From positions 126,001 through 190,000 of the forward strand of contig MFIU01000001.1 of NCBI GenBank assembly GCA_001778985.1: DNA of 64,000 nucleotides, read 5' to 3'. This DNA comes from Candidatus Giovannonibacteria bacterium RIFOXYD1_FULL_48_21. Lineage in GTDB: Bacteria > Patescibacteriota > Minisyncoccia > JACPKW01 > UBA11713. A model generated the notes under the pieces. The model saw only the letters and a list, made by a program, of their open reading frames with translations. It searched no databases and had not been told where the DNA came from. This document shows positions 4,601 through 53,276 of this stretch, piece by piece (positions within the stretch are counted from its first letter, which is position 1; the number at the start of each line of letters is the position of its first letter). Position numbers and translations under genes: made by a program.

Positions 4601-5431
4601 ATTTCCGGCCTGGTCAAAGATGCGCACGGAGTCGTGGCGGTTGGACCAGAATTCGCTCTCTCTTCCCATAAAAATCCGCCATTCTTTCTGGTCAAAATCC
4701 GCGTCGTTTTTGAAATCTTTAACACAGCCGGTGTAGTTCGCGTGCTCTGCCACAAACTGGGAACATTCGTCGTCAATGCCCGAGGAGAAATTAATGGTCG
4801 GAGAGGTGCAGTAGGCGATGCGCTCGACGAAAATTTGGCATTTCTCTTTTAAGTTTTTGAATTTGGCAAGCTCGTCCAGCCGCGGGCAGGAGAAAGGCAG
4901 GTCGGGATAATAAGTTTTATTCTGCGCCAGATAGCCCGAGCATTTGTTAACCTTGAAATTGAATCCGCGGGGGCTCTCGCCAGTGGCGATAACGGCGCGC
5001 TCGCCGGGATTTAGAAAAATCGCGCTTCCGAATTCGTCCCGGCCCACTTCAATGGTTTCATTGTTCCGGTTTTTCAGGATAAGGCCGGTTATGACCACTT
5101 TTATTTTGTTCAGGTTTGGAGCGGAGATTTGAATATGCTCACGTTCAAGTTCCAGCCGCGTGCCTCCGGAAGACAGGAGGTTTAGTTGGCCTGGGCTTAT
5201 TGGGACGATGGGCGTTGGCAGAGGTGCCGGTGCCGGAGGAGTGGGTGAGGGAGCTGGAGAGGGAGCTGGCCGTAATTCTTCTTCCACGGTTCCTTCTCTG
5301 GAAGGGGAACCGAAACGAATGCCCGAGCCGCCGAAAAGCCCATCGCCTCTGGAAGAGATTAAAATCACTCCGAGCACAATCAGAAAAAGCCAAATCCAAT
5401 GGTCACCGGCTGGTTTTTCATTGTCCGCCAT
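4577..5431 (-). CDS. hypothetical membrane-anchored/secreted protein with Pro-rich linker and Cys-rich C-terminal domain
   Basis: N-terminal TM helix, PAPSPAPSPTPPAPAPLPTP linker, 6+ Cys in the C-terminal part. Confidence 0.45.
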   Translation of the reverse strand: MADNEKPAGDHWIWLFLIVLGVILISSRGDGLFGGSGIRFGSPSREGTVEEELRPAPSPAPSPTPPAPAPLPTPIVPISPGQLNLLSSGGTRLELEREHIQISAPNLNKIKVVITGLILKNRNNETIEVGRDEFGSAIFLNPGERAVIATGESPRGFNFKVNKCSGYLAQNKTYYPDLPFSCPRLDELAKFKNLKEKCQIFVERIAYCTSPTINFSSGIDDECSQFVAEHANYTGCVKDFKNDADFDQKEWRIFMGRESEFWSNRHDSVRIFDQAGNLISEVSY

Positions 5432-6625: not shown

Positions 6626-6697
6626 GTCCCCATAGCTTAACGGATAAAGTACAGCCCTCCGAAGGCTGGGATCGAGGTTCAATTCCTCGTGGGGACG
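6626..6697 (+). tRNA. tRNA-Arg (anticodon CCG)
   Basis: manual cloverleaf: acceptor GTCCCCA/TGGGGAC, D-stem GCTT/AAGT, anticodon stem CAGCC/GGCTG with loop CTCCGAA, T-arm CGAGG-TTCAATT-CCTCG; 72 nt. Confidence 0.7.
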
Positions 6698-6698
6698 C

Positions 6699-6769
6699 CG
6701 GGCTGTAGTATAGCGGTAGTACACAAGGCTGGGGGTCTTGTAGCCGGGGTCCGACTCCCCGCAGCCCGA
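6699..6769 (+). tRNA. tRNA-Pro (anticodon GGG)
   Basis: acceptor CGGGCTG/CAGCCCG, anticodon stem CAAGG/TCTTG with loop CTGGGGG (G37), T-arm CGGGG-TCCGACT-CCCCG; begins 1 nt after tRNA-Arg. Confidence 0.65.
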
Positions 6770-6781
6770 CACTTCGACTTT

Positions 6782-9801: not shown

Positions 9802-10542
9802 ATGAAAGATTTCGGTCTTCTTAAGAATCAAGCTTTAAATCTAAGAAAAAAAGGGTTAAGTTATAGTGAAATCCGTAGTAAGATTAAAGTTTCAAAAAGC
9901 ACTTTAAGCATGTGGCTAAAGGGCGTGAAGCTGAAACCTGAACACCGAGCGAGATTATATACTAAGCAAATTCAAATACTTTCACGCGGCCCACAAAGCC
10001 AAAAGGAAAGGAGGGCGAGAGAAATTAAAGAAATTGTAAAAGAAGCAAGCAATGAGATTAAACTTCCCCTCTCGTCCGAAGCCCACCGTCTTATTGGGGT
10101 GGGGTTATACTGGGCGGAAGGATCGAAAGGCAAAATGTTTCAAATAACGAATTCTGACCCGTATTTAATTCTTTTCATGGTGCGGTGGATAGAAAAGATT
10201 TTTAGTATTTCTGTAGAAACTTTAAGAGCACGGCTGAATATTTACCCCCAGCAGGGCGATCTGAAAATTAAGAAATTCTGGTCGAATCTTACAGGGATTC
10301 CGTTGAAAAATTTTAAAAAAAGTTATATAAAGCCGCTTAGTACAGGATATAAGAAGAATAATCTTTATTATGGGACAATTAGGATCGAAGTTCCTAAAAG
10401 TGCCAACTTTGTTTGTAAAACGTTCGGATGGGTTCAAGGACTATTGGCGGATATTAAGCCGCAAGTTGATTTTGTTCAAAAGAAATGGCGTCATCTTTCA
10501 AAAGTGCCCCGGCCTGTGAATTTAAATCCCCCCATAGCTTAA
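9802..10542 (+). CDS. LAGLIDADG-like homing-endonuclease-fold protein with N-terminal HTH
   Basis: LIGVGLYWAEGSKG fits the single LAGLIDADG motif; N-terminus LRKKGLSYSEIRSKIKVSKSTLSMWLKG is HTH-like; start chosen at the second Met (ORF opens at 9724); the stop codon lies inside tRNA-Lys. Confidence 0.4.
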   Translation: MKDFGLLKNQALNLRKKGLSYSEIRSKIKVSKSTLSMWLKGVKLKPEHRARLYTKQIQILSRGPQSQKERRAREIKEIVKEASNEIKLPLSSEAHRLIGVGLYWAEGSKGKMFQITNSDPYLILFMVRWIEKIFSISVETLRARLNIYPQQGDLKIKKFWSNLTGIPLKNFKKSYIKPLSTGYKKNNLYYGTIRIEVPKSANFVCKTFGWVQGLLADIKPQVDFVQKKWRHLSKVPRPVNLNPPIA

Positions 10543-10599
10543 CGGTAAAGCACCCGCCTCTTAAGCGGTGAGTTCTAGGTTCAAATCCTAGTGGGGGGA
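10528..10599 (+). tRNA. tRNA-Lys (anticodon CTT)
   Basis: acceptor CCCCCCA/TGGGGGG, D-stem GCTT/AAGC, anticodon loop CTCTTAA, T-arm CTAGG-TTCAAAT-CCTAG. Confidence 0.65.
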
Positions 10600-10633
10600 C
10601 AAACAACAACATTCGGTGTAAAATATATACACC

Positions 10634-20714: not shown

Positions 20715-20984
20715 ATGGACCAGATTTTAGTGAAGCCGATGGTAAGCGAAAAAAATACCTTACTCTCCAGCCGAGGCGTTTATGTTTTTCAGGTGGAAAA
20801 TGAGGCCAATAAGATCACGATTAAAAAAGCGGTGGAGCGTCTTTATAAGGTGAGGGTTGAGAGAGTCAATTTAGTGAAAGTTTTACCAAAGAAACGAATC
20901 TTGCGGGGCCGGGTTGGGTTTCGTCCCGGCTATAAAAAGGCGCTGGTCTTTTTGGCCGCGGGGCAGAAAATTGATTTAACATGA
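20715..20984 (+). CDS. rplW: 50S ribosomal protein L23
   Basis: MDQILVKPMVSEKNTLL... Confidence 0.9.
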   Translation: MDQILVKPMVSEKNTLLSSRGVYVFQVENEANKITIKKAVERLYKVRVERVNLVKVLPKKRILRGRVGFRPGYKKALVFLAAGQKIDLT

Positions 20985-20985
20985 A

Positions 20986-21094
20986 TCCCGTTAGAAATTC
21001 AACCAAGATTATTATAAGATATTTTGCAGTGAGCGAACTCACCTTTGGTTTTTATAATTGCGGCAAAGGCTTATTAGTAAAATTTCTAACGGGA
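20986..21094. mobile_element. MITE-like TIR element, subtype B copy 1 (109 bp)
   Basis: TIR TCCCGTTAGAAAT / ATTTCTAACGGGA; flanked by direct TGAA (20982-85 and 21095-98); the last A of the element plus TG of the repeat form the rplB ATG. Confidence 0.6.
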
Positions 21095-21921
21095 TGAAAA
21101 CTTATCGCGCCTTCACTCCATCCCGCCGGCAGATGACCGGGATTGAATATAAAAAGATTTTAACTCGTTCCGAACCCGAGAAGAGTTTGACTTTTGGCCG
21201 GAAGAGAGCTTTCGGCCGGTCGAACCAGGGACGGATTACGACCCGTCATAAGGGCGCGGGCGCGAAACGGCTTTGGCGCGAGGTGGATTTTTCTATGGAG
21301 AAAAAAGATATTCCGGCCAAAGTGCTTTCGATTGAATATGACCCCAACCGCACCGCCTTCATCGGTCTCGCGGCCTACCGCGACGGTGCGAAGCGCTACC
21401 TGGTTTTGCCCTCCGGCGTCGGCGTCGGCGATGAAATTTTAACTTCTGAAAAAGCGCCGCTGAAGCGCGGCAACCGCTTGCCTCTTAAAAATATTCCGGT
21501 CGGCAGTCAGGTCTATAATATAGAAGTTTATCCCGGCGGCGGAGCCAAACTGGTCAGGGGCGCGGGAACCTTCGCCCAGATTCTGGCGCAGGACGCGCCC
21601 ATAACTTTGCTTAAACTTCCTTCCGGGGAGATTCGAAAATTACAGGATCGCGCTTGGGCGTCTTTGGGCCAGGTTTCGAATCAGGACGCGAATTTGGTGG
21701 TGATTGGAAAAGCCGGACGTTCGCGCTGGCTCGGCATCAGGCCCACGGTTCGCGGCTCAGCCATGAACCCCGTGGATCATCCCTATGGGGGCGGCGAAGG
21801 CCGGGCGCTCCGAGGCACCAGGCGCCCTAAAAACAAGTGGGGCAAGGGGGGGCGGGGAGTGAAAACCCGTTCCAGAAAGAAGTGGTCGGCGAGTCTGATT
21901 GTTGCGAGAAGAACGAAATAA
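21094..21921 (+). CDS. rplB: 50S ribosomal protein L2
   Basis: [14 protein letters not shown]...; start placed at the Met immediately after the element (the ORF track starts inside the element at 21058). Confidence 0.9.
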
Positions 21922-25483: not shown

Positions 25484-25585
25484 CCCCGTTAGAAAATCTA
25501 CATGCAATACTATTCACAAAAAATAAATATCTCTCGCAAAAACTGGTCTTGGTCGCATCAGCTTATTAGAGATTTTCTAACGGGG
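25484..25585. mobile_element. MITE-like TIR element, subtype A copy 1 (102 bp)
   Basis: 16-bp perfect TIR CCCCGTTAGAAAATCT / AGATTTTCTAACGGGG; between the rpsZ stop and the rpsH start. Confidence 0.6.
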
Positions 25586-25984: not shown

Positions 25985-26086
25985 CCCCGTTAGAAAATCT
26001 ACATGCAATACTATTCACAAAAAATAAATATCTCTCGCAAAAACTGGTCTTGGTCGCATCAGCTTATTAGAGATTTTCTAACGGGG
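25985..26086. mobile_element. MITE-like TIR element, subtype A copy 2 (100% identical to copy 1)
   Basis: identical 102-bp sequence; flanks TAATTCA and TAAATG. Confidence 0.6.
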
Positions 26087-26970: not shown

Positions 26971-27072
26971 CCCCGTTAGAAAATCTACATGCAATACTAT
27001 TCACAAAAAATAAATATCTCTCGCAAAAACTGGTCTTGGTCGCATCAGCTTATTAGAGATTTTCTAACGGGG
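26971..27072. mobile_element. MITE-like TIR element, subtype A copy 3 (100% identical)
   Basis: identical 102-bp sequence; flanks TGATTCA and TAAATG. Confidence 0.6.
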
Positions 27073-27967: not shown

Positions 27968-29211
27968 TTTTTAAAGATAAGGACCTGCGGAAGAAAATTC
28001 TTTTCGTATTGGGAGCGCTCGCGGTTTTCCGAATCGCCGCGGCTCTGCCGATTCCCGGAGTCGATCTTTTGCGGCTGAAATCTTTTTTTGAAGGCAACCA
28101 GTTTCTGGGGCTTTTGAATCTTTTCTCCGGAGGCGCCTTGGACAATCTTTCGGTGGTGATGCTGGGGGTCGGCCCCTATATCACTTCTTCAATTATCATG
28201 CAGCTTTTGACCATGATTTTTCCGCGCTTGAAGGAGATGTATCACGAAGAAGGCGAAGAGGGCCGGAGAAGATTCAACCAATATTCGCGCTTTTTAACAG
28301 TTCCTTTGGCGGTTCTGCAGGGTTTCGCGCTTTTGACGCTCTTGGAGCGGCAGGGAGTTTTGGGAGCGCTTTCTTTGCCGGAGCGATTGGTCAATGTCGC
28401 CGTGGTCGCGGCCGGCTCTATTTTTCTGATGTGGCTGGGCGAGCTCATCTCGGAGTATGGAATCGGGAACGGAATTTCGCTTCTGATTTTCGCAGGCATC
28501 GTGTCCGGAGTTCCTGTCTCAATTCAACAGACTTTTTTGGCGTTCGAACCCTCCCAGCTTCCGGTTATTTTAGGATTTCTGGCGGCCGGGCTCGCCATCA
28601 TCGCGGGCGTGGTGATAATAAGCGAGGGAGAGCGGCCGATTCCTGTTTCCTACGCCAAGCGGATTCGCGGCATGAGAATATACGGAGGCGTCTCCACGCA
28701 CCTGCCGCTTCGCGTCAATCAGGCCGGAGTGATTCCGATTATCTTCGCGCTCTCGATTCTTTTGTTTCCGCAGATGCTCATAAACTTCATCGCCCAGAGC
28801 CAGAATGAAATTCTGCGAAGCGTCGCCAACGCCATTTTGGGATTTTTAGGCAGCACTCTTTTTTACAGCTTGGCTTATTTTATTCTGGTTTTTCTCTTTA
28901 CCTACTTTTATACCGCGGTGACTTTTGACCCGGAGCAGATTTCTTCAAACCTGCAGAAAAGCGGGGCTTTTGTGCCCGGAATTCGGCCCGGCCGGCCCAC
29001 TGCGGATTTTCTTTCGAGGGTTTTGACTCGGATTACTTTAATCGGCGCTCTGTTTTTGGGTTTGATTGCGGTTATGCCTCTGGTGATGCAGGCCGCGACC
29101 GGATTGGCGGCGCTCACCATCGGCGGCACCGGCCTTTTGATTGTGGTTTCGGTGGTGCTGGAAACCGTGAAGCAGGTTGAAGCCCAGCTCGTGATGCGGG
29201 AATATGAGTAA
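27949..29211 (+). CDS. secY: preprotein translocase subunit SecY
   Basis: 10 TM helices, position after rplO, SecY motifs. Confidence 0.9.
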   Translation: MEKLWLIFKDKDLRKKILFVLGALAVFRIAAALPIPGVDLLRLKSFFEGNQFLGLLNLFSGGALDNLSVVMLGVGPYITSSIIMQLLTMIFPRLKEMYHEEGEEGRRRFNQYSRFLTVPLAVLQGFALLTLLERQGVLGALSLPERLVNVAVVAAGSIFLMWLGELISEYGIGNGISLLIFAGIVSGVPVSIQQTFLAFEPSQLPVILGFLAAGLAIIAGVVIISEGERPIPVSYAKRIRGMRIYGGVSTHLPLRVNQAGVIPIIFALSILLFPQMLINFIAQSQNEILRSVANAILGFLGSTLFYSLAYFILVFLFTYFYTAVTFDPEQISSNLQKSGAFVPGIRPGRPTADFLSRVLTRITLIGALFLGLIAVMPLVMQAATGLAALTIGGTGLLIVVSVVLETVKQVEAQLVMREYE

Positions 29212-29315
29212 GGATATTCACACCCTCTCTTGAAATAGTCGAACTTTTAGTAGACCTTTTACGTTTAGTTAAGGAGTTACTTGATTTTTTTAAATATTTC
29301 TGATATATTTTTTAC

Positions 29316-29504
29316 ATGACAACTTCCATTCAGGAGAAAAAAATTGAGGAGGCAATAATAAGGGTTTTACAGACAATGATGGCTGACCCGGATTTCGGGT
29401 TGGAACTGCGCCCCGAATTTGAGAGAAAATTAATGAAATCCGCTGCTTCCAGGAAAGCCGGGCACCTTAAAGATTTCAGAGAGGTGCTTGCTTCGCTTTT
29501 GTGA
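29316..29504 (+). CDS. small hypothetical protein (62 aa), possible antitoxin-like partner
   Basis: its stop overlaps the GTG of a RelE/ParE-like remnant (GTGA). Confidence 0.3.
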   Translation: MTTSIQEKKIEEAIIRVLQTMMADPDFGLELRPEFERKLMKSAASRKAGHLKDFREVLASLL

Positions 29505-29611
29505 GCGATAGCTGGAGAATTAAATTCACTCCCGAAGGAGAACAAGATTTAACCAGACTCGATAGAATTGAGCTTAGAGATAAAGTTTATAAGAAGAGAA
29601 GGAAAAGATGA
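29501..29611 (+). pseudogene. truncated RelE/ParE-family toxin-like remnant (36 codons)
   Basis: translation SDSWRIKFTPEGEQDLTRLDRIELRDKVYKK matches the N-terminal helix pattern of RelE/ParE toxins (I/V-x-F-T-x-x-A/G-x-x-D-L-x-x-L) but stops after 36 aa; its stop overlaps the adk ATG. Confidence 0.25.
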
Positions 29612-30963: not shown

Positions 30964-31776
30964 ATGCCGCAGCCGGATATCTACCCCGTTAGAAGTAAGT
31001 CGCCGTCGGCGACTGCCGTTCCTTTCTCGGAACGGACTTCTAACGGGGTCTATCTCTCCGTCATAATTCCCGCGTACAACGAGGCGGAGCGATTGCCTAA
31101 AACTTTAAGAAGATTTCAGGAATATTTTCAATCCAAACCCTTTTCTTATGAGATTATCGTGGCCGCGGACGGCCCTTCTGACAATACGATTGAAATTGCC
31201 CAAAATATGGCCGCGGAGATAAAAAATCTTAAGGTTTTGGAACGAAGGCAAAACCGCGGCAAAGGTTACACCGTCCGGGAAGGGATGCTGGCCGCCCAAG
31301 GCCGCCTCCGGCTTTTCGCCGACGCCGACAATTCCACGGATATTTCTCATTTTGACAAAATGCGCTCTCTTTTTGATAAGGGCTGCGACGTGGTCATTTG
31401 CTCCCGCGACGAAAAGGATGCCCCGGGCGCGAAACAAGCGGTTCCTCAAGCGTGGCCTAAGCGCCTTTTAGGGAATATGGGAAACCTTTTTATCCAATTC
31501 ATTGCGGTTCGGGGGATTTGGGACACCCAGTGCGGTTTTAAGGCTTTTCGCTCCGCGGCGGCTCAAAATATTTTCTCGCGCGCCAGAATAAACCGCTGGG
31601 GCTTTGACATCGAAGTTTTGGCGCTGGCCCGCGCTTTGAATTATAAAATCGGCATCATCCCCGCCAACTGGATAAACGACCCCAAAAGCCACGTGAAATT
31701 GTCCGGGTATTTGCAGGTTTTGTGGGAGACCGTCAAAATAAGATGGAATTTAATGACGGGCCGATATAATTTATGA
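30964..31776 (+). CDS. family-2 glycosyltransferase (DPM1-like) carrying a 23-codon in-frame element insertion near the N-terminus
   Basis: LSVIIPAYNEAERL...IIVAADGPSDNT... Confidence 0.7.
   Translation: MPQPDIYPVRSKSPSATAVPFSERTSNGVYLSVIIPAYNEAERLPKTLRRFQEYFQSKPFSYEIIVAADGPSDNTIEIAQNMAAEIKNLKVLERRQNRGKGYTVREGMLAAQGRLRLFADADNSTDISHFDKMRSLFDKGCDVVICSRDEKDAPGAKQAVPQAWPKRLLGNMGNLFIQFIAVRGIWDTQCGFKAFRSAAAQNIFSRARINRWGFDIEVLALARALNYKIGIIPANWINDPKSHVKLSGYLQVLWETVKIRWNLMTGRYNL
30984..31048. mobile_element. MITE-like TIR element, subtype D (65 bp), inserted in frame in the GT2 gene
   Basis: TIR CCCCGTTAGAAGT / ACTTCTAACGGGG; perfect 4-bp direct repeat TCTA on both sides; 65+4=69 bp keeps the reading frame. 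Confidence 0.6.
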
Positions 31777-40247: not shown

Positions 40248-40261
40248 TTAGGGGTAATGAA

Positions 40262-40370
40262 CCCCGTTAGAAATTCAGACGAGGCTATCATAAGATATTT
40301 TACATTGAGCAAATTCGCCTTCGGCTTTTTTAACCGCAACAAAAGTTTATTGGTAAAATTTTTAACGGGG
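40262..40370. mobile_element. MITE-like TIR element, subtype B copy 2 (109 bp, ~78% identical to copy 1)
   Basis: TIR CCCCGTTAGAAATTC / AAATTTTTAACGGGG; direct TGAA flanks (40258-61 and 40371-74); the last G plus TG form the GTG start of the downstream gene. Confidence 0.6.
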
Positions 40371-41737
40371 TGAAAATTTCTTTTTTCGGAGGAGCGCAAG
40401 AAGTGACCGGCTCCTGTTTTCTTTTCGATTCAGGCAAAACCAAGGTTTTGGTGGATTGCGGGCTTTTCCAGTGCCCGCGTTTTTGCGATATTCGTTCCAA
40501 AGAGCCCTTTCCTTTTAACCCTAAAGAAATTTCCGCGCTTTTTGTAACTCACGCCCACATCGACCATACCGGAAGGATTCCAAAACTGATTAAAGCGGGT
40601 TTTTCCGGGAAGATTTTTTCCACCCCGCCCACGAAAGAGCTTGCGGAACTGATGCTTTCCGATAGTTTGGGGGTGCTCGAAAAAGAAGCCAAGCGCCATA
40701 ATGAACCTTTGTTCTATGAAGAACGTGATATCGCCGCCGCGCTCGAGCTTTGGAAGGGAATCGATTATTATCAGAAACTTGAGATCGGCGATTTCAAAAT
40801 AAGACTGCTCGATTCCGGCCATGTTTTAGGGTCGGCCATGGTTGAGTTTGAGGTCGGCACCCGCCTGTCGGACGGGCAGGGGAAGAAAATAGTACTCACC
40901 GGAGACTTGGGAAATCCTCCCACCCCGCTTCTTCGAGATCCGGAGGAAGTGCGGGATGCCCAAGTTCTTCTCATTGAGTCTACCTACGGCAACCGCGTTC
41001 ATGAGAATCGGCCGGAGCGCAAGCTTAAGCTCGAGCGCGTCATCGAGGACACTCTTAAAGCCGGAGGGGTTCTGATGATTCCGGCTTTTTCTCTCGAGCG
41101 CACTCAAGAGCTTTTGGCCGAGATAGACGATTTGGTGCAGTTCGGCCGGATTCCCCAGGTTCCGATTTTTCTGGATTCGCCTTTGGCGATTAAAGCCACC
41201 GCCGTTTATAAAAAATACAAAAGTTATTTTAACAAAGAGGTGCACCTTAAAATCAAATCCGGAGACGACCTCTTCCGCTTTCCAGGACTTCGCTTCACGC
41301 TTACCACCGCCGAGTCAAAACAAATCAACGAGGTGCCGCCTCCGAAAATCATTATCGCGGGTTCGGGGATGTCGACCGGAGGACGGATTTTGCATCACGA
41401 ACGGCGCTATCTTTCCGACCCCAAGAGCACTCTTTTGATGGCGGGCTATCAGGCCGCGGGCTCATTGGGGAGGGTACTTCAAGACGGAGCCAGCGAGGTT
41501 ACGATTTTCGGGGAGAAAATCCCAGTGAGGGCCAGAGTTGAAACGCTTCAAGGTTATTCCGCCCATCCGGATCGGGAGCAGCTTCTGGAGTTCGTTTCCA
41601 AGAGCAAAGATTCGCTGGAGGAGGTTTTCGCGATTCAGGGCGAACCAGCGTCGTGCCTTTTCATGGTGCAGCGGATTCGGGATTATTTGGGGATTGACGC
41701 CTCGGCGCCGAAATACGGAGAAACATATGAAATATGA
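40370..41737 (+). CDS. beta-CASP family MBL-fold ribonuclease (RNase J/CPSF-like)
   Basis: VDCGLFQ, VTHAHIDHTGRIP, beta-CASP motifs; apparent GTG start created at the element junction. Confidence 0.65.
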   Translation: MKISFFGGAQEVTGSCFLFDSGKTKVLVDCGLFQCPRFCDIRSKEPFPFNPKEISALFVTHAHIDHTGRIPKLIKAGFSGKIFSTPPTKELAELMLSDSLGVLEKEAKRHNEPLFYEERDIAAALELWKGIDYYQKLEIGDFKIRLLDSGHVLGSAMVEFEVGTRLSDGQGKKIVLTGDLGNPPTPLLRDPEEVRDAQVLLIESTYGNRVHENRPERKLKLERVIEDTLKAGGVLMIPAFSLERTQELLAEIDDLVQFGRIPQVPIFLDSPLAIKATAVYKKYKSYFNKEVHLKIKSGDDLFRFPGLRFTLTTAESKQINEVPPPKIIIAGSGMSTGGRILHHERRYLSDPKSTLLMAGYQAAGSLGRVLQDGASEVTIFGEKIPVRARVETLQGYSAHPDREQLLEFVSKSKDSLEEVFAIQGEPASCLFMVQRIRDYLGIDASAPKYGETYEI

Positions 41738-42418: not shown

Positions 42419-43524
42419 AGACGATTGAGGGGCTGGGGCTCTTGTTGGGAATGATTATAGGCGCAGGGCTTTTCGCCCTGCCGTATAGTTTTTTAAAATC
42501 CGGAATTTTGTGGGGCGGCTTGCTTTTTGTTTTAGTTTTTCTGATAAGCTGGCTTTTGCATTCGCTCTACGCCGCCATAATCTATATCACTCCCGGTAAA
42601 CACCGCTTCCCCGGATACATTAAATTACATCTGGGCGAGCGAGCGGAAACTCTGGCGGCGATTTTCACCTTTCTCTCTTACTACGGAGCTATGCTCGCCT
42701 ATGGCCTTTTGGGCGCGATTTTTCTCCAGACTATTTTTGGGCTTGATTTTTTATGGAGCGGAATTTTATTCTTCATCGCCGGGGGAGCGCTCTTTTTTTT
42801 GTCGCTGCGGGTGGTTGGAAAAATAAATTTCTATCTCACCCTCCCGCTTTTGGCCTTCATCCTTATTCTGGTGGTCCAATTATTTCCGGATGTGGCGAGA
42901 GAAAACTTTACCCTGCCGTCCGGCCCGGACTTTCTCCTGCCTTACGGAGTTTTTCTCTTCGCTTTCGGAGGGTACGCCGCCCTTCCGGATTTGCATGATG
43001 TTTTGGGCGCCAATCGGAGAAAACTTTCCAAAAAAATAATTTTTGCGAGCCTCGCGATTTCGGCTCTTTTTTACCTCATTTTCATTCTCGCGGTCCTGGG
43101 CGCCTCCGGCGCCCGGACTTCCCCTGACTCTTTCTCCGGGCTTCTGCCAGTCGCGGCGGGGAGCGTGGTTTTAATCGGTTCTATAATCGGAATTTTAACC
43201 GTATTTACATCGTATATCGTCTTCGGCGTCGATTTAAAACTGACTTTCCGTTACGATTACAAATTTTCAGAGGCTCATTCCTGGATTTTGGCGTTCGGAC
43301 CGCCTATTTTGCTTTTCGCTTTTGGCTTTACTGACCTGATTAAAATTTTGAGCCTCGTCGGCTCGGTCGGCCTCGGGGTTTTCGCGGTTTTTATTTTGCT
43401 GATTTCCTGGCGGGAGCGCGAAAAACTCGCGTCTTTTCTGGGTTTTGTCCCGCGGGCCTGGTGGCTTTTGCCTTTGGGAATTTTGGTTGTTCTGGGCGCC
43501 TTGCAGGATATACTTAATCTATGA
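42415..43524 (+). CDS. amino-acid permease (HAAAP/Trp-Tyr permease-like)
   Basis: 11 TM; N-terminus GLLLGMIIGAGLFALPYSF. Confidence 0.5.
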   Translation: MKTIEGLGLLLGMIIGAGLFALPYSFLKSGILWGGLLFVLVFLISWLLHSLYAAIIYITPGKHRFPGYIKLHLGERAETLAAIFTFLSYYGAMLAYGLLGAIFLQTIFGLDFLWSGILFFIAGGALFFLSLRVVGKINFYLTLPLLAFILILVVQLFPDVARENFTLPSGPDFLLPYGVFLFAFGGYAALPDLHDVLGANRRKLSKKIIFASLAISALFYLIFILAVLGASGARTSPDSFSGLLPVAAGSVVLIGSIIGILTVFTSYIVFGVDLKLTFRYDYKFSEAHSWILAFGPPILLFAFGFTDLIKILSLVGSVGLGVFAVFILLISWREREKLASFLGFVPRAWWLLPLGILVVLGALQDILNL

Positions 43525-43525
43525 A

Positions 43526-43628
43526 TCCCGTTAGAAAATCTACGAGCTTTTATATTTTAGATTCAAGCATTCTTGTTTTAGAGGGTCGGCTATGGTCAAG
43601 TCGGCCTATGGTAGATTTTCTAACGGGA
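43526..43628. mobile_element. MITE-like TIR element, subtype C (103 bp)
   Basis: TIR TCCCGTTAGAAAATCTA / TAGATTTTCTAACGGGA; direct TGAA flanks (43522-25 and 43629-32); the last A plus TG form the downstream ATG. Confidence 0.6.
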
Positions 43629-44869
43629 TGAAAATAGCGGCGGACCTTCATATCCATTCCAAATTCTCCCGGGCGGTTTCCAAGGAGATGACTTTGGAGA
43701 ATTTGGATACTTGGGCGAGAAAAAAAGGCATCAATGTTTTGGGTACAGGGGATTTCACGCATCCGCAGTGGTTTAGGGAAATAAAAGCCAAGCTTGAACC
43801 AAGCGAGGCAGGACTATACAAATTAAAGGGTTCTGATTCTGGAACGAGATTCATTCTGACGGTGGAAATTTCGAATATCTACACCAAGAATAAAAAAGGC
43901 CGAAGGGTTCATAACTTAATTTTCGTGCCGACCATCGAAGCGGCGGAGAAAATTAATGAGCGTTTGGGCTGGCAGGGGAATTTGCGCTCGGACGGCCGTC
44001 CGATTCTGGGTCTCGATTCGAAAGAACTTTTGAAAATTGTTCTCGACATTGAGCCCCGTTCGCTTTTTGTTCCGGCTCACGCCTGGACGCCTTGGTTTTC
44101 GATTTTCGGCTCCATGTCCGGTTTTGATTCCATCGAAGAATGTTTTGACGAGTATTCAAAATATATTTATGCGATTGAAACCGGGCTCTCTTCCGACCCG
44201 GCCATGAACTGGCGGCTTTCGAAGCTAGATAAAATCGCCTTGATTTCAAATTCGGACAGCCATTCCTTGGAGCGAATCGGACGGGAAGCCAATGTTTTCG
44301 ATTGCGAGCTTTCTTATGACGCGATTGTCGAGGCGATAAAATCCAAAAATCCCAAAAAGTTTCTCTATACCATCGAATTTTTTCCGGAAGAAGGAAAGTA
44401 TCACTATGATGGGCACCGGCTTTGCAATTTTTCACAAGACCCGGCCGTGACCAAAGAGAAAGGCAAAATCTGTCCAGTCTGCAAGCGGCCGATGACCATC
44501 GGAGTTTTGTACCGGGTGGAAGAGTTGGCGGATAGACCATCCGGAACAAAACCGGCCAATGCCGTCCCCTTTAAGAGTTTGGTCACGCTCGATAAAATTA
44601 TCGGCGATGCTTTGGGAGTGGGTGAGAAGTCAAAAGCCGTGCAGAGAGAATATGAAAGTTTGATTCAAAAGTTCGGAAACGAGCTCGCGGTTTTGCTTGA
44701 TGTTCGGGAATCTGATTTGAAATCCGCCACAGATTCACGAATTTCCGAAGGAATTTTGAAAGTCCGCGAAGGCAAGGTGAAAGTCACACCCGGCTATGAC
44801 GGCGAGTATGGAAAAATTTCCATTTTTAATGCCGAAGATTTAAAAGTCCCCCAAGAGAGTTTATTTTAA
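43628..44869 (+). CDS. PHP-domain protein with C-terminal zinc ribbon
   Basis: MKIAADLHIHSKFS (PHP motif I), conserved His/Asp in later motifs, CPVCKRP. Confidence 0.5.
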   Translation: MKIAADLHIHSKFSRAVSKEMTLENLDTWARKKGINVLGTGDFTHPQWFREIKAKLEPSEAGLYKLKGSDSGTRFILTVEISNIYTKNKKGRRVHNLIFVPTIEAAEKINERLGWQGNLRSDGRPILGLDSKELLKIVLDIEPRSLFVPAHAWTPWFSIFGSMSGFDSIEECFDEYSKYIYAIETGLSSDPAMNWRLSKLDKIALISNSDSHSLERIGREANVFDCELSYDAIVEAIKSKNPKKFLYTIEFFPEEGKYHYDGHRLCNFSQDPAVTKEKGKICPVCKRPMTIGVLYRVEELADRPSGTKPANAVPFKSLVTLDKIIGDALGVGEKSKAVQREYESLIQKFGNELAVLLDVRESDLKSATDSRISEGILKVREGKVKVTPGYDGEYGKISIFNAEDLKVPQESLF

Positions 44870-47286: not shown

Positions 47287-47407
47287 TCATTAAAGCTGGA
47301 AATGTAGGGCTGTCTTACATTTTCGAAGCTGTGGTCCTTTAACTCACCTCTGCGAAAAAGGCTATTCGCAGAAGGTTATGCTCCCAATGGGAAGCGAAGG
47401 AGGTTTT

Positions 47408-48058
47408 ATGAAGCCAAGTTTTGAACAAGGGATTTTGTTTGACCGGAATGTCGTAGAACTCAAGGCGAAGCTTGACCACGACGAAATGCAACGGCTGATT
47501 GAGGGCTTCAATCTTGTCTACGGCATCGCCAAAGGCAAGGTCAAGAGAACGGCGTCAGTATTATTAAATCTTGTCGTTTCCGGAGTGAGCATTACCGCAG
47601 CGCCCGCCGCGAAAACGGATGACTGTTTCAAGGTCGGGGACGGCGTCTTCGCTTATCGTGACCAGGATTTTGACCGCTGGTTGCCGGCAACGGTTCCGGC
47701 CGTGGGCGCGGGCAACGCCTCGACGTTTGAGTTTGAAATAGATCTCAACTTTCAGGAAATTGTAGAGGCGCACCTCGGCACCAAAGGCTCAATCGATGAG
47801 CTCAAAAAAGCGCTTATCGAGAATGGAAAGTGCTGGAGCCCGAAGCAGATAGATAAGCTCATCCGCAACTGCGAGAATGGCGACAATCCCTTAAAACTGC
47901 GGACTGACGGCTATGCCAATTTCTTCTTTATTGATATTGGCGGCGGCGTCTTCGCGGTCAGCGCCTATCGGTTCTCGGACGGCTGGGACATGTATGTCTA
48001 CGAGTTCGCGGACACCAATCGCTGGCGCGTCGAGGACCGCGTTTCTTTCCGCAACTGA
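47408..48058 (+). CDS. DGR target protein (variable C-terminus)
   Basis: strong SD GAAGGAGG 5 nt before ATG 47408; the last ~36 codons are the VR. Confidence 0.7.
   Translation: MKPSFEQGILFDRNVVELKAKLDHDEMQRLIEGFNLVYGIAKGKVKRTASVLLNLVVSGVSITAAPAAKTDDCFKVGDGVFAYRDQDFDRWLPATVPAVGAGNASTFEFEIDLNFQEIVEAHLGTKGSIDELKKALIENGKCWSPKQIDKLIRNCENGDNPLKLRTDGYANFFFIDIGGGVFAVSAYRFSDGWDMYVYEFADTNRWRVEDRVSFRN
47947..48055 (+). repeat. DGR variable repeat (VR)
   Basis: 109 bp, 89% identical to the TR; all 12 mismatches fall at positions where the TR has A. Confidence 0.8.
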
Positions 48059-48089
48059 TTCTTTGTTTCTTTGTCCCTCCGCATCCTAA

Positions 48090-48120
48090 ACGCCGGGTGT
48101 TCATCCTGAACATCCGGCGT
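48090..48120 (+). other. GC-rich hairpin immediately downstream of the VR (DGR target-recognition hairpin)
   Basis: ACGCCGGGTGTTCA-TCC-TGAACATCCGGCGT, 14-bp stem with 3-nt loop. Confidence 0.55.
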
Positions 48121-48326
48121 ATCTTTTTTAATGCTATACTCAATATGAATTTCGCTGGCATCCCCGGTCAAGGCTTGGGGTGGCGAAATTCCGGTCTGAA
48201 ATTTTTATTTCCGCCCGTCAAAAAACAAACAGTTGGTGCGGTCTGCTAGGAAACATTAAGGTTTCAAATACTATACAGCCCCGAGAGTATTCAAAGGGCA
48301 GTGGATTGGGCGGCAGGCGGCACGAA

Positions 48327-48435
48327 ACGTCTTCGCGGTCAACGCCAATCGGAACTCGGACGGCTGGAACATGAATGTCAACGAGTTCGCGAACACCAAT
48401 CGCTGGAACGTCGAGAACCGCGTTTCTTTCCGAAA
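48327..48435 (+). repeat. DGR template repeat (TR)
   Basis: nine AAC/AAT codons aligned to diversified VR codons. Confidence 0.8.
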
Positions 48436-48789
48436 CTATTTGTTTTCTCCCGCTGCGCTCTGGCGGGAGTTTTTGCTCCAACCGTAGAGCATTTTCCCGA
48501 CCTCATTCAGATGCTTGGAAAGCAGAATATACTTTTTATTGTTAAGCATCTTTATTTCCCAAGATACTTGCAGAAAGAATTTAAGAATGTCCAGTTTATT
48601 TTGGGCTTTATCCAAATACGGCAATTTCTCTTGTCTCGGCAGATAACTTGCTATGAATAACGATTCAAGGGTTTCCAGGAAGAGTAAATCTATTTTAGCG
48701 CCGAGCGTCAGGCGCAATGTTTTTGGGAGATTTTCAAAAACCCCATGCCACGATTTGTAGACCGCAACCAAGCGCCCGATGATGAGCAC
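48436..48789 (-). CDS. avd: Avd-like four-helix-bundle protein (accessory variability determinant)
   Basis: 117 aa; C-terminal LNEVGKMLYGWSK resembles the TIGR02436/bAvd EIGxxLxGW tail; GTG start; opposite strand to TR/RT. Confidence 0.55.
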   Translation of the reverse strand: MLIIGRLVAVYKSWHGVFENLPKTLRLTLGAKIDLLFLETLESLFIASYLPRQEKLPYLDKAQNKLDILKFFLQVSWEIKMLNNKKYILLSKHLNEVGKMLYGWSKNSRQSAAGENK

Positions 48790-48889
48790 GGTTCCGTAAG
48801 GGGGGGGGCTTAAAGGAAGAATTCAATTCGGACATAGTTTTGAAGATATCATTTCGGTTGAAAATCTCCTAGCGGCTTGGAAAGAATTT

Positions 48890-49777
48890 TTGAAAGGGAA
48901 ACGCAATAAACCTGATGTCCAAGAATTTTCGATACGGCTCATGGATAATATTCTAGCACTTTACCAAGAACTTGCCTCTAAAACTTACGAGCACGGCGGC
49001 TATAAATCCTTTCACATCTTTGACCCCAAGCCGAGGCATATCCACAAAGCCAGTGTTCGCGATAGATTATTACACCATGCCATTTACCGGAAGCTCTATA
49101 CGTTCTTTGACAGAACTTTCATTACCGATTCATTTTCCTGCCGCAAGAACAGAGGAACACATAAGGCACTAAACGGGTTTAAAGCGTTTGGGCAAAAAGT
49201 AAGTCGAAACAACACCAAAATCTGCTGGGTTTTGAAAGGCGACATCCGAAAGTTCTTTCAGAACATTGACCATGAAGTTTTAATGAATACTTTATCGCAG
49301 CATATCCCTGATAAAAATATTCTCTGGCTTCTAAAAAAAGTTATTGAGAGTTTTTCTCCCGGTCTACCCCTCGGCAACCTAACTTCCCAGCTTTTCGTTA
49401 ATATCTATATGAACGAATTTGACCAATTTGTGAAACATAAATTGAAAGTAAAATATTATATTCGCTACGCGGACGACTTCGTGATTTTGTCGGAAGATAA
49501 AAGCGAACTCCATAATCTAATTCCAAAAATCAGAGATTTTTTTCAAGACACCCTGCGTCTCGAACTCCATCCCGACAAAGTTTTTATCAAAACTCTTGCT
49601 TCCGGCGTTGACTTTTTGGGCTGGGTTCATTTTCCGGACAATAGGGTATTGCGAACGGCGACCAAAAGGCGGATGATTAAAAGGATACAAGATAATCTAA
49701 ATCCCCAGACCTTGAATTCATACCTCGGTTTTCTGAAACACGGAAATACATATAAACTTCGGAAAGAAATTTACTGA
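48890..49777 (+). CDS. DGR-type reverse transcriptase
   Basis: YADD box (IRYADDFVIL) and the DGR-specific PLGNLTSQ motif; conserved N-terminal residues (FEDIISVENLLAAWKEF) lie in frame upstream of the called TTG start, back to ~48800. Confidence 0.8.
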   Translation: MKGKRNKPDVQEFSIRLMDNILALYQELASKTYEHGGYKSFHIFDPKPRHIHKASVRDRLLHHAIYRKLYTFFDRTFITDSFSCRKNRGTHKALNGFKAFGQKVSRNNTKICWVLKGDIRKFFQNIDHEVLMNTLSQHIPDKNILWLLKKVIESFSPGLPLGNLTSQLFVNIYMNEFDQFVKHKLKVKYYIRYADDFVILSEDKSELHNLIPKIRDFFQDTLRLELHPDKVFIKTLASGVDFLGWVHFPDNRVLRTATKRRMIKRIQDNLNPQTLNSYLGFLKHGNTYKLRKEIY

Positions 49778-52975: not shown

Positions 52976-53006
52976 ATAGTTTAATTATAGAGTAATTGAA
53001 TTTTGT

Positions 53007-53276
53007 TGTGGAGATGGCGGGAATTGAACCCGCGTCAGAAGAAATTTTGAACCGCGGTTGACAGGCTTAAAACTTTTGAAGGTTTTTCTCGCTTATAACA
53101 CCCGCGACCCTCTAGCGAGAATCAAGGACGGATGCTTACACAGACTTAATTAAGCAACTGCGTAAGAAGGTTGGAATAAGTTTGCACTTACTACATTGAG
53201 AGATTTTTAAGAGCTAACTCTCGTCCTCTGCCTGAGCGCCTGCTCAAACTTTTCCTCCTCGAGGCCGATCATCCCC
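53007..53276 (-). ncRNA. ssrA: tmRNA (ssrA), about 270 nt
   Basis: 5' GGGGATG pairs with 3' CATCTCC-A (G3:U wobble), T-arm GCGGG-TTCAATT-CCCGC, tag reading frame GCA AAC TTA TTC CAA CCT TCT TAC GCA GTT GCT TAA (ANLFQPSYAVA*) at 53150-53185. Confidence 0.65.

Follow-up and report, generated by a model that had tools for sequence, protein, structure and literature searches.

A putative miniature transposable element inserted in frame near the start of a glycosyltransferase gene of Candidatus Giovannonibacteria, and its family in other genomes

We analyzed a window of 64,000 nucleotides (nt) from Candidatus Giovannonibacteria bacterium RIFOXYD1_FULL_48_21, a tiny bacterium of groundwater (contig MFIU01000001.1, positions 126,001 to 190,000 of the forward strand), in which a first-pass annotation had described a short in-frame insertion in a glycosyltransferase family 2 (GT2) gene. 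All coordinates given below are those of the window unless another contig is named. We consider it quite probable that the insertion is a non-autonomous transposable element, i.e., a MITE (miniature inverted-repeat transposable element), that entered the GT2 gene at a TCTA target behind its seventh codon and duplicated those four bases, that the gene stayed open and most likely yields an enzyme of 270 amino acids (aa), and that the element belongs to a family that is active or was recently so and is kept only where it is harmless.

The GT2 gene (30964..31776, + strand) has 270 codons including the insertion and was classified as dolichyl-phosphate beta-glucosyltransferase-like based on its open reading frame (ORF), its Pfam PF00535 match, its homologues, and its AlphaFold model. 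The ORF starts at ATG 30964, and its first seven codons read MPQPDIY. Next come the left copy of TCTA (30980..30983, +), a 65-bp MITE-like element that we refer to as subtype D (30984..31048), and the right copy of TCTA (31049..31052, +), after which the reading resumes with LSVIIPAYNE. The element is phased as CCC GTT AGA ... TCT AAC GGG, is free of stop codons, and reads PVRSKSPSATAVPFSERTSNG(V) in translation. Together with one TCTA it adds 69 bp, which are read as 23 codons (PVRSKSPSATAVPFSERTSNGVY) without a stop and without a shift of the frame; therefore, the gene stays open. When the element and one TCTA were deleted, the remaining sequence gave MPQPDIYLSVIIPAYNE, which is letter-for-letter the N terminus of the orthologue P0004. 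The earlier description of this site thus held in its coordinates, its repeats and duplication, its 23 extra residues without a frameshift, and its statement that removal of the element and one TCTA restores a normal GT2 N terminus.

The ends of the element are perfect 13-bp terminal inverted repeats, CCCCGTTAGAAGT on the left (30984..30996, +) and ACTTCTAACGGGG on the right (31036..31048, +), with 0 mismatches. Between them lie inner hairpin 1 (AGTCGCC-GTC-GGCGACT, 30998..31014, +) and inner hairpin 2 (CCGTTCC-TTTCTC-GGAACGG, 31016..31035, +). The predicted single-strand fold consisted of a 13-bp outer stem formed by the terminal repeats and two 7-bp hairpins, in line with the previous suggestion that the inner part is made of two short palindromes, and its energy was -43.2 kcal/mol compared to -19 +/- 2.8 kcal/mol in shuffled sequences (z = -8.8). 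The 13-mer repeat, with up to two mismatches allowed, occurred 12 times in the window versus 1.5 times expected, and none of 100 shuffles reached 12. At 2621-2718 of L107, a contig binned as Planctomycetota, we observed a 96- to 98-bp element that shares its ends and its arrangement of two hairpins with the GT2 copy but has hairpin 1 expanded by 33 nt; the study behind this contig also produced a Patescibacteria bin, and the contig may therefore be mis-binned.

The closest relatives of the GT2 gene provided empty sites. P0002, a 247-aa orthologue with 95% identity to the window protein, has an uninterrupted site that reads MPNSDIYLSVIIP, and P0004 (85% identical) has the N terminus MPQPDIYLSVIIP; the N termini of P0002, P0004, and P0126 follow the pattern MP(Q/N)(P/S)DIYLSVI(I/V)P, and the element is absent from all three. 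The contig that carries P0002 (L001) has the gene order of the window at 85 to 93% nucleotide identity, and TCTA is present there as a single copy. Relative to the window, L001 lacks 69 bp in the GT2 gene, 107 bp between the L18 and S5 genes, and 113 bp where a beta-CASP nuclease gene begins. In terms of the seven family copies that we numbered along the window, copies 4, 5 (the GT2 copy), and 6 are missing from L001, and L001 contains empty sites for copies 5 and 6. At the copy 6 site, L001 reads TTAGGGGTAATGAAAATTTC with a single TGAA, and the window reads ...TAATGAA followed by CCCC...GGGG and then by TGAAAATTTC. This comparison directly demonstrates a 4-bp TGAA duplication.

The protein collection contained 7762 GT2 homologues, mostly 247 aa in length, and the named ones were mainly from Candidatus Giovannonibacteria, a Parcubacteria lineage in the candidate phyla radiation (CPR). 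We surveyed the best 120 clusters of these homologues and found the standard M-x3-DIYLS spacing in 82, no insertion in 113, and a longer N terminus in 7. The seven clusters have their extra residues at the same place, and several of these begin with PVRS and end with SNGVY, which might suggest that the 23 residues are a native, lineage-specific N-terminal segment and that no insertion took place. We find this hardly credible: the residues in common come from translation of the inverted repeats, the inner sequences and the lengths vary so that the 23-aa segment is not a conserved region of the orthologues, the DNA has inverted repeats and duplications, and members of the element family are also found between unrelated genes. 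In addition, the carriers are dispersed over the tree, and the segment is missing from the nearest relatives.

The same GT2 codon was hit repeatedly. Some orthologues have 23, 24, 24, or 38 extra residues there with inner sequences that are unlike one another, and the underlying DNA belongs to the same element family or, in one case, to a different inverted-repeat family. Specifically, the family member in L002 is 110 bp long with perfect repeats and has duplicated TTTA, L003 and L004 contain degenerate family members (the L004 copy is homologous to that of L002), and L005, a Giovannonibacteria-like contig, contains a 65-bp element at 285-349 with the inverted repeats CCCCCACACCAAT...ATTGGTGTGGGGG and the flanks TTTA/TATA. 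The ORFs around the degenerate insertions in L003 and L004 are still intact, which suggests long-term tolerance. In a neighbor-joining tree of the GT2 core, the carriers were scattered among insertion-free sequences, a distribution that calls either for four or more events by members of two element families or for repeated precise loss. All of the clear insertions at the site are multiples of three (69, 114, 72, 72, and 69 bp). The site might be the sole tolerant T-N-N-A site near the start of the gene or a true target hot spot, and both options fit the data. Family members were also found in L005 and L006 at the next junction downstream, the ATGA overlap between the GT2 gene and GalT. Two other long N termini were not counted as elements: that of P0074 was dropped because it has no inverted repeats, and that of P0012 has none recognizable by eye. 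A possible further end of the CCCCCACACCAAT...ATTGGTGTGGGGG family was seen in L101.

The GT2 domain (PF00535) was detected directly after the insert, at residues 32 to 203 (E = 4e-25; 89 bits versus a cut-off of 23.3). An AlphaFold model built with 46 aligned sequences had a mean predicted local distance difference test (pLDDT) score of 89.7 and a predicted template modeling (pTM) score of 0.86. The pLDDT scores exceeded 90 in the core, and residues 1 to 29 scored 43 to 57 and were without regular structure. Strand beta-1 was placed at residues 30 to 37, and the remainder formed a confident GT-A-type fold of alternating beta and alpha elements. The domain match and the model together identify the host gene as a GT2 gene whose product has a predicted GT-A fold. 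According to the model, the 23 residues would merely lengthen a flexible, disordered N-terminal tail, and the placement of this tail ahead of beta-1 would leave the catalytic GT-A core untouched.

The public calls of the GT2 gene differ. Products of 270 aa (on 22 contigs from independent assemblies), 237 aa (ATA start), and 227 aa (TTG start, on more than 24 contigs) have all been annotated. The exact 270-aa protein is HBT81677.1 from Candidatus Giovannonibacteria, and its presence on 22 contigs of independent assemblies indicated that the insertion does not stem from faulty assembly. The protein collection lacked the exact 247-aa form that a deletion would give for this allele; therefore, the insertion allele appears to be fixed in the population sampled. 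Between ATG 30964 and the conserved core, the frame contains no ATG, GTG, or TTG. The next such codon is the TTG at about 31093, past the PAYNE motif, and a check for alternative start codons yielded no downstream start that would retain both strand beta-1 and PAYNE. Over 46 orthologues, S32 and P36 were invariant, and Y30, L31, V33, I34, and A37 to E40 were nearly so.

The shorter calls correspond to an alternative in which the element lies in a 5' untranslated leader, the true start is downstream (TTG at about 31093 for 227 aa, or ATA 31063 for 237 aa), and no residues are added. Other pipelines called such products on at least 29 contigs, and ATG 30964 is preceded by no obvious Shine-Dalgarno sequence and followed closely by a strong hairpin. 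Nevertheless, we judge a downstream start to be quite unlikely. The shorter products would drop all or part of beta-1, and the 227-aa form would also drop PAYNE, although these residues are invariant or nearly so; moreover, a truncated form of about 227 aa was seen in 0 of the 120 best clusters, and the clear insertions at the site are all multiples of three in length. The N-terminal M-x3-DIY is conserved in the orthologues, which indicates that this ATG is the start used in the family. The gene is most likely translated from the original ATG into the 270-aa enzyme, and the tryptic peptide expected from the in-frame reading of the element is SPSATAVPFSER.

Two additional alternatives accept the insertion and concern its consequences. 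In the first, the insertion inactivated or crippled the GT2 gene, which would be a pseudogene in the making; the hairpin 20 nt past the start codon could indeed reduce expression, and the function of the 270-aa enzyme is predicted. We regard this as distinctly improbable because the ORF is intact, is 95% identical to the insertion-free orthologue, and keeps all of the invariant residues, because the same allele is on 22 contigs, and because older, decayed insertions at this site in other lineages are still located in full-length genes. The modeled position of the insert outside the folded core also argues against it. In the second, the element is excised from the transcript or passed over by the ribosome (translational bypassing), and the protein has the normal 247 aa. 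The TCTA direct repeats around a strong hairpin are superficially like a bypass element, but the element keeps the frame and lacks stops, neither of which bypassing would need, every insertion at the GT2 site is frame-preserving, and no stop codon marks a take-off site. Skipping of the element is therefore exceedingly improbable in our estimation, and translation through it is the reading that we retain.

The seven copies in the window share the ends CCCGTTAGAA/TTCTAACGGG. Copy 1 (109 bp, 20986..21094) is located at the overlap of the L23 stop and the L2 start, is flanked by TGAA, and rebuilds the L2 ATG with its last base, A. Copy 2 (102 bp, 25484..25585) fills the spacer before S8 (presumed to be the S14/S8 spacer) with the flanks TAAG/TAAA, copy 3 (102 bp, 25985..26086) is in the S8/L6 spacer, and copy 4 (102 bp, 26971..27072) is in the L18/S5 spacer. 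Copies 2 to 4 are identical to one another, which suggests recent activity, and the copy 2 locus has an identical counterpart in the metagenome contig L141. Copy 5 is the 65-bp element at 30984..31048 inside the GT2 gene. Copy 6 (109 bp, 40262..40370) is located at the start codon of the beta-CASP/RMMBL nuclease gene with TGAA flanks, and its last base, G, forms a GTG. Copy 7 (103 bp, 43526..43628) is in the ATGA overlap between the stop of a permease gene and the start of a PHP-domain protein gene and also has TGAA flanks. Three further copies were found in 20 kb of flanking sequence (10 kb on each side) taken from other assemblies of the same organism, and the density was about one copy per 8 kb.

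In the case of copies 1, 6, and 7, the upstream ATGAA is retained, and the last element base (A or G) plus the duplicated TGAA forms a new ATG or GTG. In all three, the old ATG opens an ORF of 36 to 38 codons (MNPVR...FLTG*) that crosses the element and terminates on a TGA overlapping the new start. The copy 1 ORF (20981-21097) has 38 codons; the ORFs through copies 6 and 7 are at 40257-40373 and 43521-43631, respectively. The 102-bp copies at 25484-25585, 25985-26086, and 26971-27072 fill consecutive spacers of the spc operon, and two of them share the flanks ATTCA and TAAATG. Each contains an internal ATG that opens a 28-codon ORF ending on a TAA directly before the ATG of the next gene. About 8.5 kb beyond the left end of the window, at L148 1532-1648, a family copy of 109 bp separates polA from a response-regulator gene, and a 38-aa gene has been called inside it that overlaps both neighbors by 4 nt.

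We searched one genome per species for the exact ends, CCCGTTAGAA-N58-88-TTCTAACGGG, and obtained at least 120 matches, compared to an estimate of about 17 chance matches for the whole collection. The genome stretches with exact family ends were labeled as many CPR classes, Planctomycetota, Thermodesulfobacteriota/Deltaproteobacteria, and Omnitrophota, and further labels among the matches listed were Nitrospirae, KSB1, Cloacimonadota, and others; a few copies were in viral contigs. Binning errors may be behind some of the taxonomic labels. One match was located in the complete chromosome CP113000.1, and many were located amid lineage-typical genes. The elements were 65 to 116 bp in size with no transposase gene inside, and their interiors were unrelated between genomes.

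An exact 4-bp direct repeat was found in one register for 69 of 123 family members from other genomes, versus 0 to 3 in other registers. The commonest duplications were TTTA, TAAA, TGAA, TTCA, TCCA, and TGAG; most were of the form T-N-N-A, and TTAA was found in none of the 69. The bases beside the CCCG/CGGG cores were C..G in 76 of the 123 copies and T..A in 37. The family consensus is thus Y-CCCGTTAGAA...TTCTAACGGG-R, i.e., Y-CCCG...CGGG-R, plus a 4-bp duplication. Duplications of 6 bp or of 2 to 3 bp were also considered, but the outer bases pair as an inverted repeat, and TGAG and TGGG repeat all four bases, so that 4 bp fits best. At L085 5058-5165, in a metagenome-assembled genome labeled Bdellovibrionales, the family ends enclose a complete tRNA-Ala(CGC) gene (5074-5147), and the flanks do not match.

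About a third of the copies (42 of 120) are placed such that the base after the element begins the ATG or GTG of an ORF of at least 80 codons. The interiors of these 42 copies were stop-free in the frame of the duplicated start in 19 cases, compared to 5.3 expected from shuffles, and in the other two frames in 8 and 3 cases. When an upstream copy of the start was required as well, 15 of 29 were stop-free versus 3.6 expected, and 15 was reached by 0 of 20,000 simulations. Seven of those 15 reads end on a TAA in the right repeat 4 nt before the new start, six end on a TGA that overlaps the start, and two run on in frame. In two frames the right end, TTCTAACGGGR plus TGA, places a stop no more than 7 nt from the rebuilt start, and the remaining frame is open and reads through as SNG.

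Among copies located off start codons, frame-keeping lengths were enriched (37, 23, and 18 copies in the three residue classes). In all, 22 ORF-spanning cases were found. Among these, internal in-frame copies (PVR...SNG) with Pfam support were located in genes for an Exo_endo_phos protein, an IorA-like oxidoreductase, a polyprenyl synthase, UvrC, Memo, and glutamate kinase, and N-terminal copies were located in genes for a sulfatase and an NlpC/P60 protein. A look for other in-frame copies, as had been suggested for the GT2 element, turned them up in other genes and in other phyla.

The start-codon copies raised the possibility that the family is a MITE lineage spanning phyla, with ends that have adapted to coding sequence, in that the terminal purine and a duplicated TGNN yield ATG or GTG. 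The interiors would be kept stop-free in the duplicated-start frame, and the copies at start codons would act as relay ORFs that pass ribosomes to the displaced gene. We put this forward tentatively and think it somewhat doubtful as a whole; that the small ORFs hand ribosomes to the rebuilt start is suggested by their layout in the sequence. If true, such a relay would let the element colonize the ribosomal-protein operons and N termini of ultra-compact CPR genomes and use the same permissive codon repeatedly.

A related question is whether the copies are kept for a cellular role, as RNA hairpins or ribosome-relay ORFs, with the GT2 copy tuning translation, rather than being just tolerated. 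The excess of stop-free interiors in both sets of start-codon copies, the ending of 3 of 3 such window copies on a TGA that overlaps the rebuilt start, and the presence of four copies in an essential ribosomal-protein operon would be consistent with a role. However, simple survival of harmless insertions gives the same pattern, the close relative L001 manages without these copies, the inner sequences are not conserved between genomes, and the elements had no Rfam match even at E <= 1. A cellular role therefore seemed rather unlikely, and tolerance of harmless insertions remained our preferred explanation.

In the reading that we favor, the events would have unfolded as follows. A MITE would have inserted at TCTA after codon 7 of the GT2 gene and duplicated TCTA, the 69 bp of element and duplication would have left the reading frame open, and translation from the original ATG would produce the 270-aa enzyme with a 23-residue disordered extension before beta-1. 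The family would be active, or lately active, in the window lineage. In gene-dense genomes the element would survive only between genes, on start codons, or in frame in tolerant parts of proteins, and at start codons the terminal A or G plus the duplicated TG would restore ATG or GTG. The element would be moved by a DDE transposase, possibly of the IS1380/piggyBac type, as the CC(C) ends and the 4-bp duplication might indicate; the resemblance to IS1380/piggyBac is a lead only.

The assignment to MITEs was based on the terminal inverted repeats, the duplication relative to an empty site, the small size without a transposase gene, and the dispersed copies. The corresponding searches for an autonomous partner and for earlier records of the family were negative. 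No pair of family ends located 0.25 to 4.5 kb apart with a matching duplication enclosed a transposase at any locus examined, a search of the loci for unpaired ends detected no autonomous element, a metagenome scan with a 20-nt end recovered only copies of 68 to 102 bp and no autonomous element, and Pfam searches of the unannotated window ORFs detected no transposase. Rfam 15 gave no match on the elements at the gathering score and none at E <= 1 over 20900-44000, which includes all seven copies. The family was not found in our literature or Rfam searches; literature searches on MITEs in CPR bacteria, or on MITEs and translational coupling, returned nothing relevant, and a search with the family end sequences as text returned only unrelated primers. 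An integron attC site was considered and dropped, since the GTT/AAC boxes are in the arrangement opposite to the one generally known for attC and copies are located inside the ribosomal operon.

Several observations weigh against the proposed explanation. In about 1.2 Mb of sampled DNA and in the window itself, neither an autonomous copy nor a transposase was found. In the ribosomal operon, the three identical 102-bp copies are without matching 4-bp duplications, and one of them adds 107 nt, not 106 nt, relative to L001. A gain in the window lineage is not strictly separable from precise loss in sister lineages. In the case of the protein, several pipelines annotate GT2 with 227 aa (TTG) or 237 aa (ATA), and ATG 30964 is without a clear Shine-Dalgarno sequence and is followed after 20 nt by the start of the -43 kcal/mol hairpin. 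Production of protein from ATG 30964, and the activity of a 270-aa product, are accordingly given here as what the conserved residues and the intact frame lead us to infer.

Several known systems invite comparison. Rickettsia palindromic elements are short mobile repeats of palindromic sequence that are found in frame in unrelated genes and are translated in structurally tolerant places (PMC10969869). The present family is likewise in frame within GT2, UvrC, ProB, Xth, and other genes, where its translation is presumed. In contrast, its hosts are CPR bacteria and many other phyla (the window host is Candidatus Giovannonibacteria, not Rickettsia), its elements are 65 to 110 bp rather than about 150 bp, and it has clear terminal inverted repeats, a proven 4-bp duplication, and many copies on start or stop codons. 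The comparison to Rickettsia palindromic elements, which the first-pass annotation had drawn, was therefore apt for behavior, i.e., for in-frame copies in other genes, and not for family membership. Bacterial MITEs with in-frame fusions, such as intragenic ERIC, BOX, the Anabaena MITEs, and QMITE1, are small and non-coding and use a transposase in trans (PMC10969869). The present family resembles them in having inverted repeats, a duplicated target, and numerous copies, and in fusing in frame with host ORFs on occasion, but it has other ends, a far wider labeled taxonomic spread, and no known parent insertion sequence. Regular start-codon rebuilding by MITEs was not found in our literature searches.

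The transposon piggyBac produces a TTAA duplication with variants that include TAAA and TCAA and has 5' motifs such as CCCTT, and IS1380 is its prokaryotic relative (PMC10813416). The present family resembles piggyBac/IS1380 in its 4-bp duplication and in inverted repeats that begin with CC(C), but unlike piggyBac it prefers TGAA/TTCA and TAAA/TTTA sites to TTAA. It is also similar to the RAYT-mobilized REP/REPIN sequences, which are hairpin-forming repeats of about 100 nt with many copies in intergenic spacers. REPINs do not produce target duplications, however, and the present elements do; no RAYT gene was seen, although no systematic search was aimed at RAYT. The byp elements of yeast mitochondria and T4 gene 60 are likewise short, structured insertions in coding sequence near matching flanking repeats. 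Such bypass elements need not keep the frame, whereas every insertion at the GT2 site is in frame and stop-free.

Our conclusion is that the elements are a new family within a known kind, the in-frame-inserting MITEs, and are akin in behavior to Rickettsia palindromic elements. Features of added interest are that the family spans phyla, that it rebuilds start codons with regularity, and that one GT2 codon is used repeatedly. The family would be a second broad case, after Rickettsia, of mobile palindromes that add peptide segments to enzymes. For protein evolution, it presents one codon of one gene that was hit repeatedly across related lineages, and for the biology of mobile elements it presents ends that are conserved across phyla. 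Reduced CPR genomes are usually thought to be poor in mobile DNA, yet they can hold about one element per 8 kb, even in a ribosomal-protein operon, and the insertions seen are of kinds that leave every gene readable. There are also consequences for annotation: because of the element, gene callers assign different starts to an otherwise well-conserved enzyme (270, 237, or 227 aa), and ORFs of 36 to 38 codons, spurious or real, arise between essential genes.

A few additional features were observed in the window. About 400 nt between secY and adk (29199-29607) are missing from L001; this insert contains a 62-aa ORF (29316-29504) with no Pfam match followed by a 36-codon ORF that begins with VSDSWRIKFTPEGEQDLTRLD..., and it may be a small two-gene cassette of the toxin-antitoxin type. 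A diversity-generating retroelement is located at 47378-49774 and includes a reverse-transcriptase ORF (PF00078, 48890-49774). Its 118-nt template repeat is located at 48328-48445 and matches the variable repeat found at 47947-48064, where the ORF at 47378-48055 has its 3' end, and 13 of the 15 differences between the repeats are a template A replaced by another base in the variable copy. A transfer-messenger RNA gene with the tag peptide ANLFQPSYAVA is at 53006-53276 on the - strand, tRNA-Arg and tRNA-Pro genes are at 6626-6770, and a tRNA-Lys gene is at 10528-10600.

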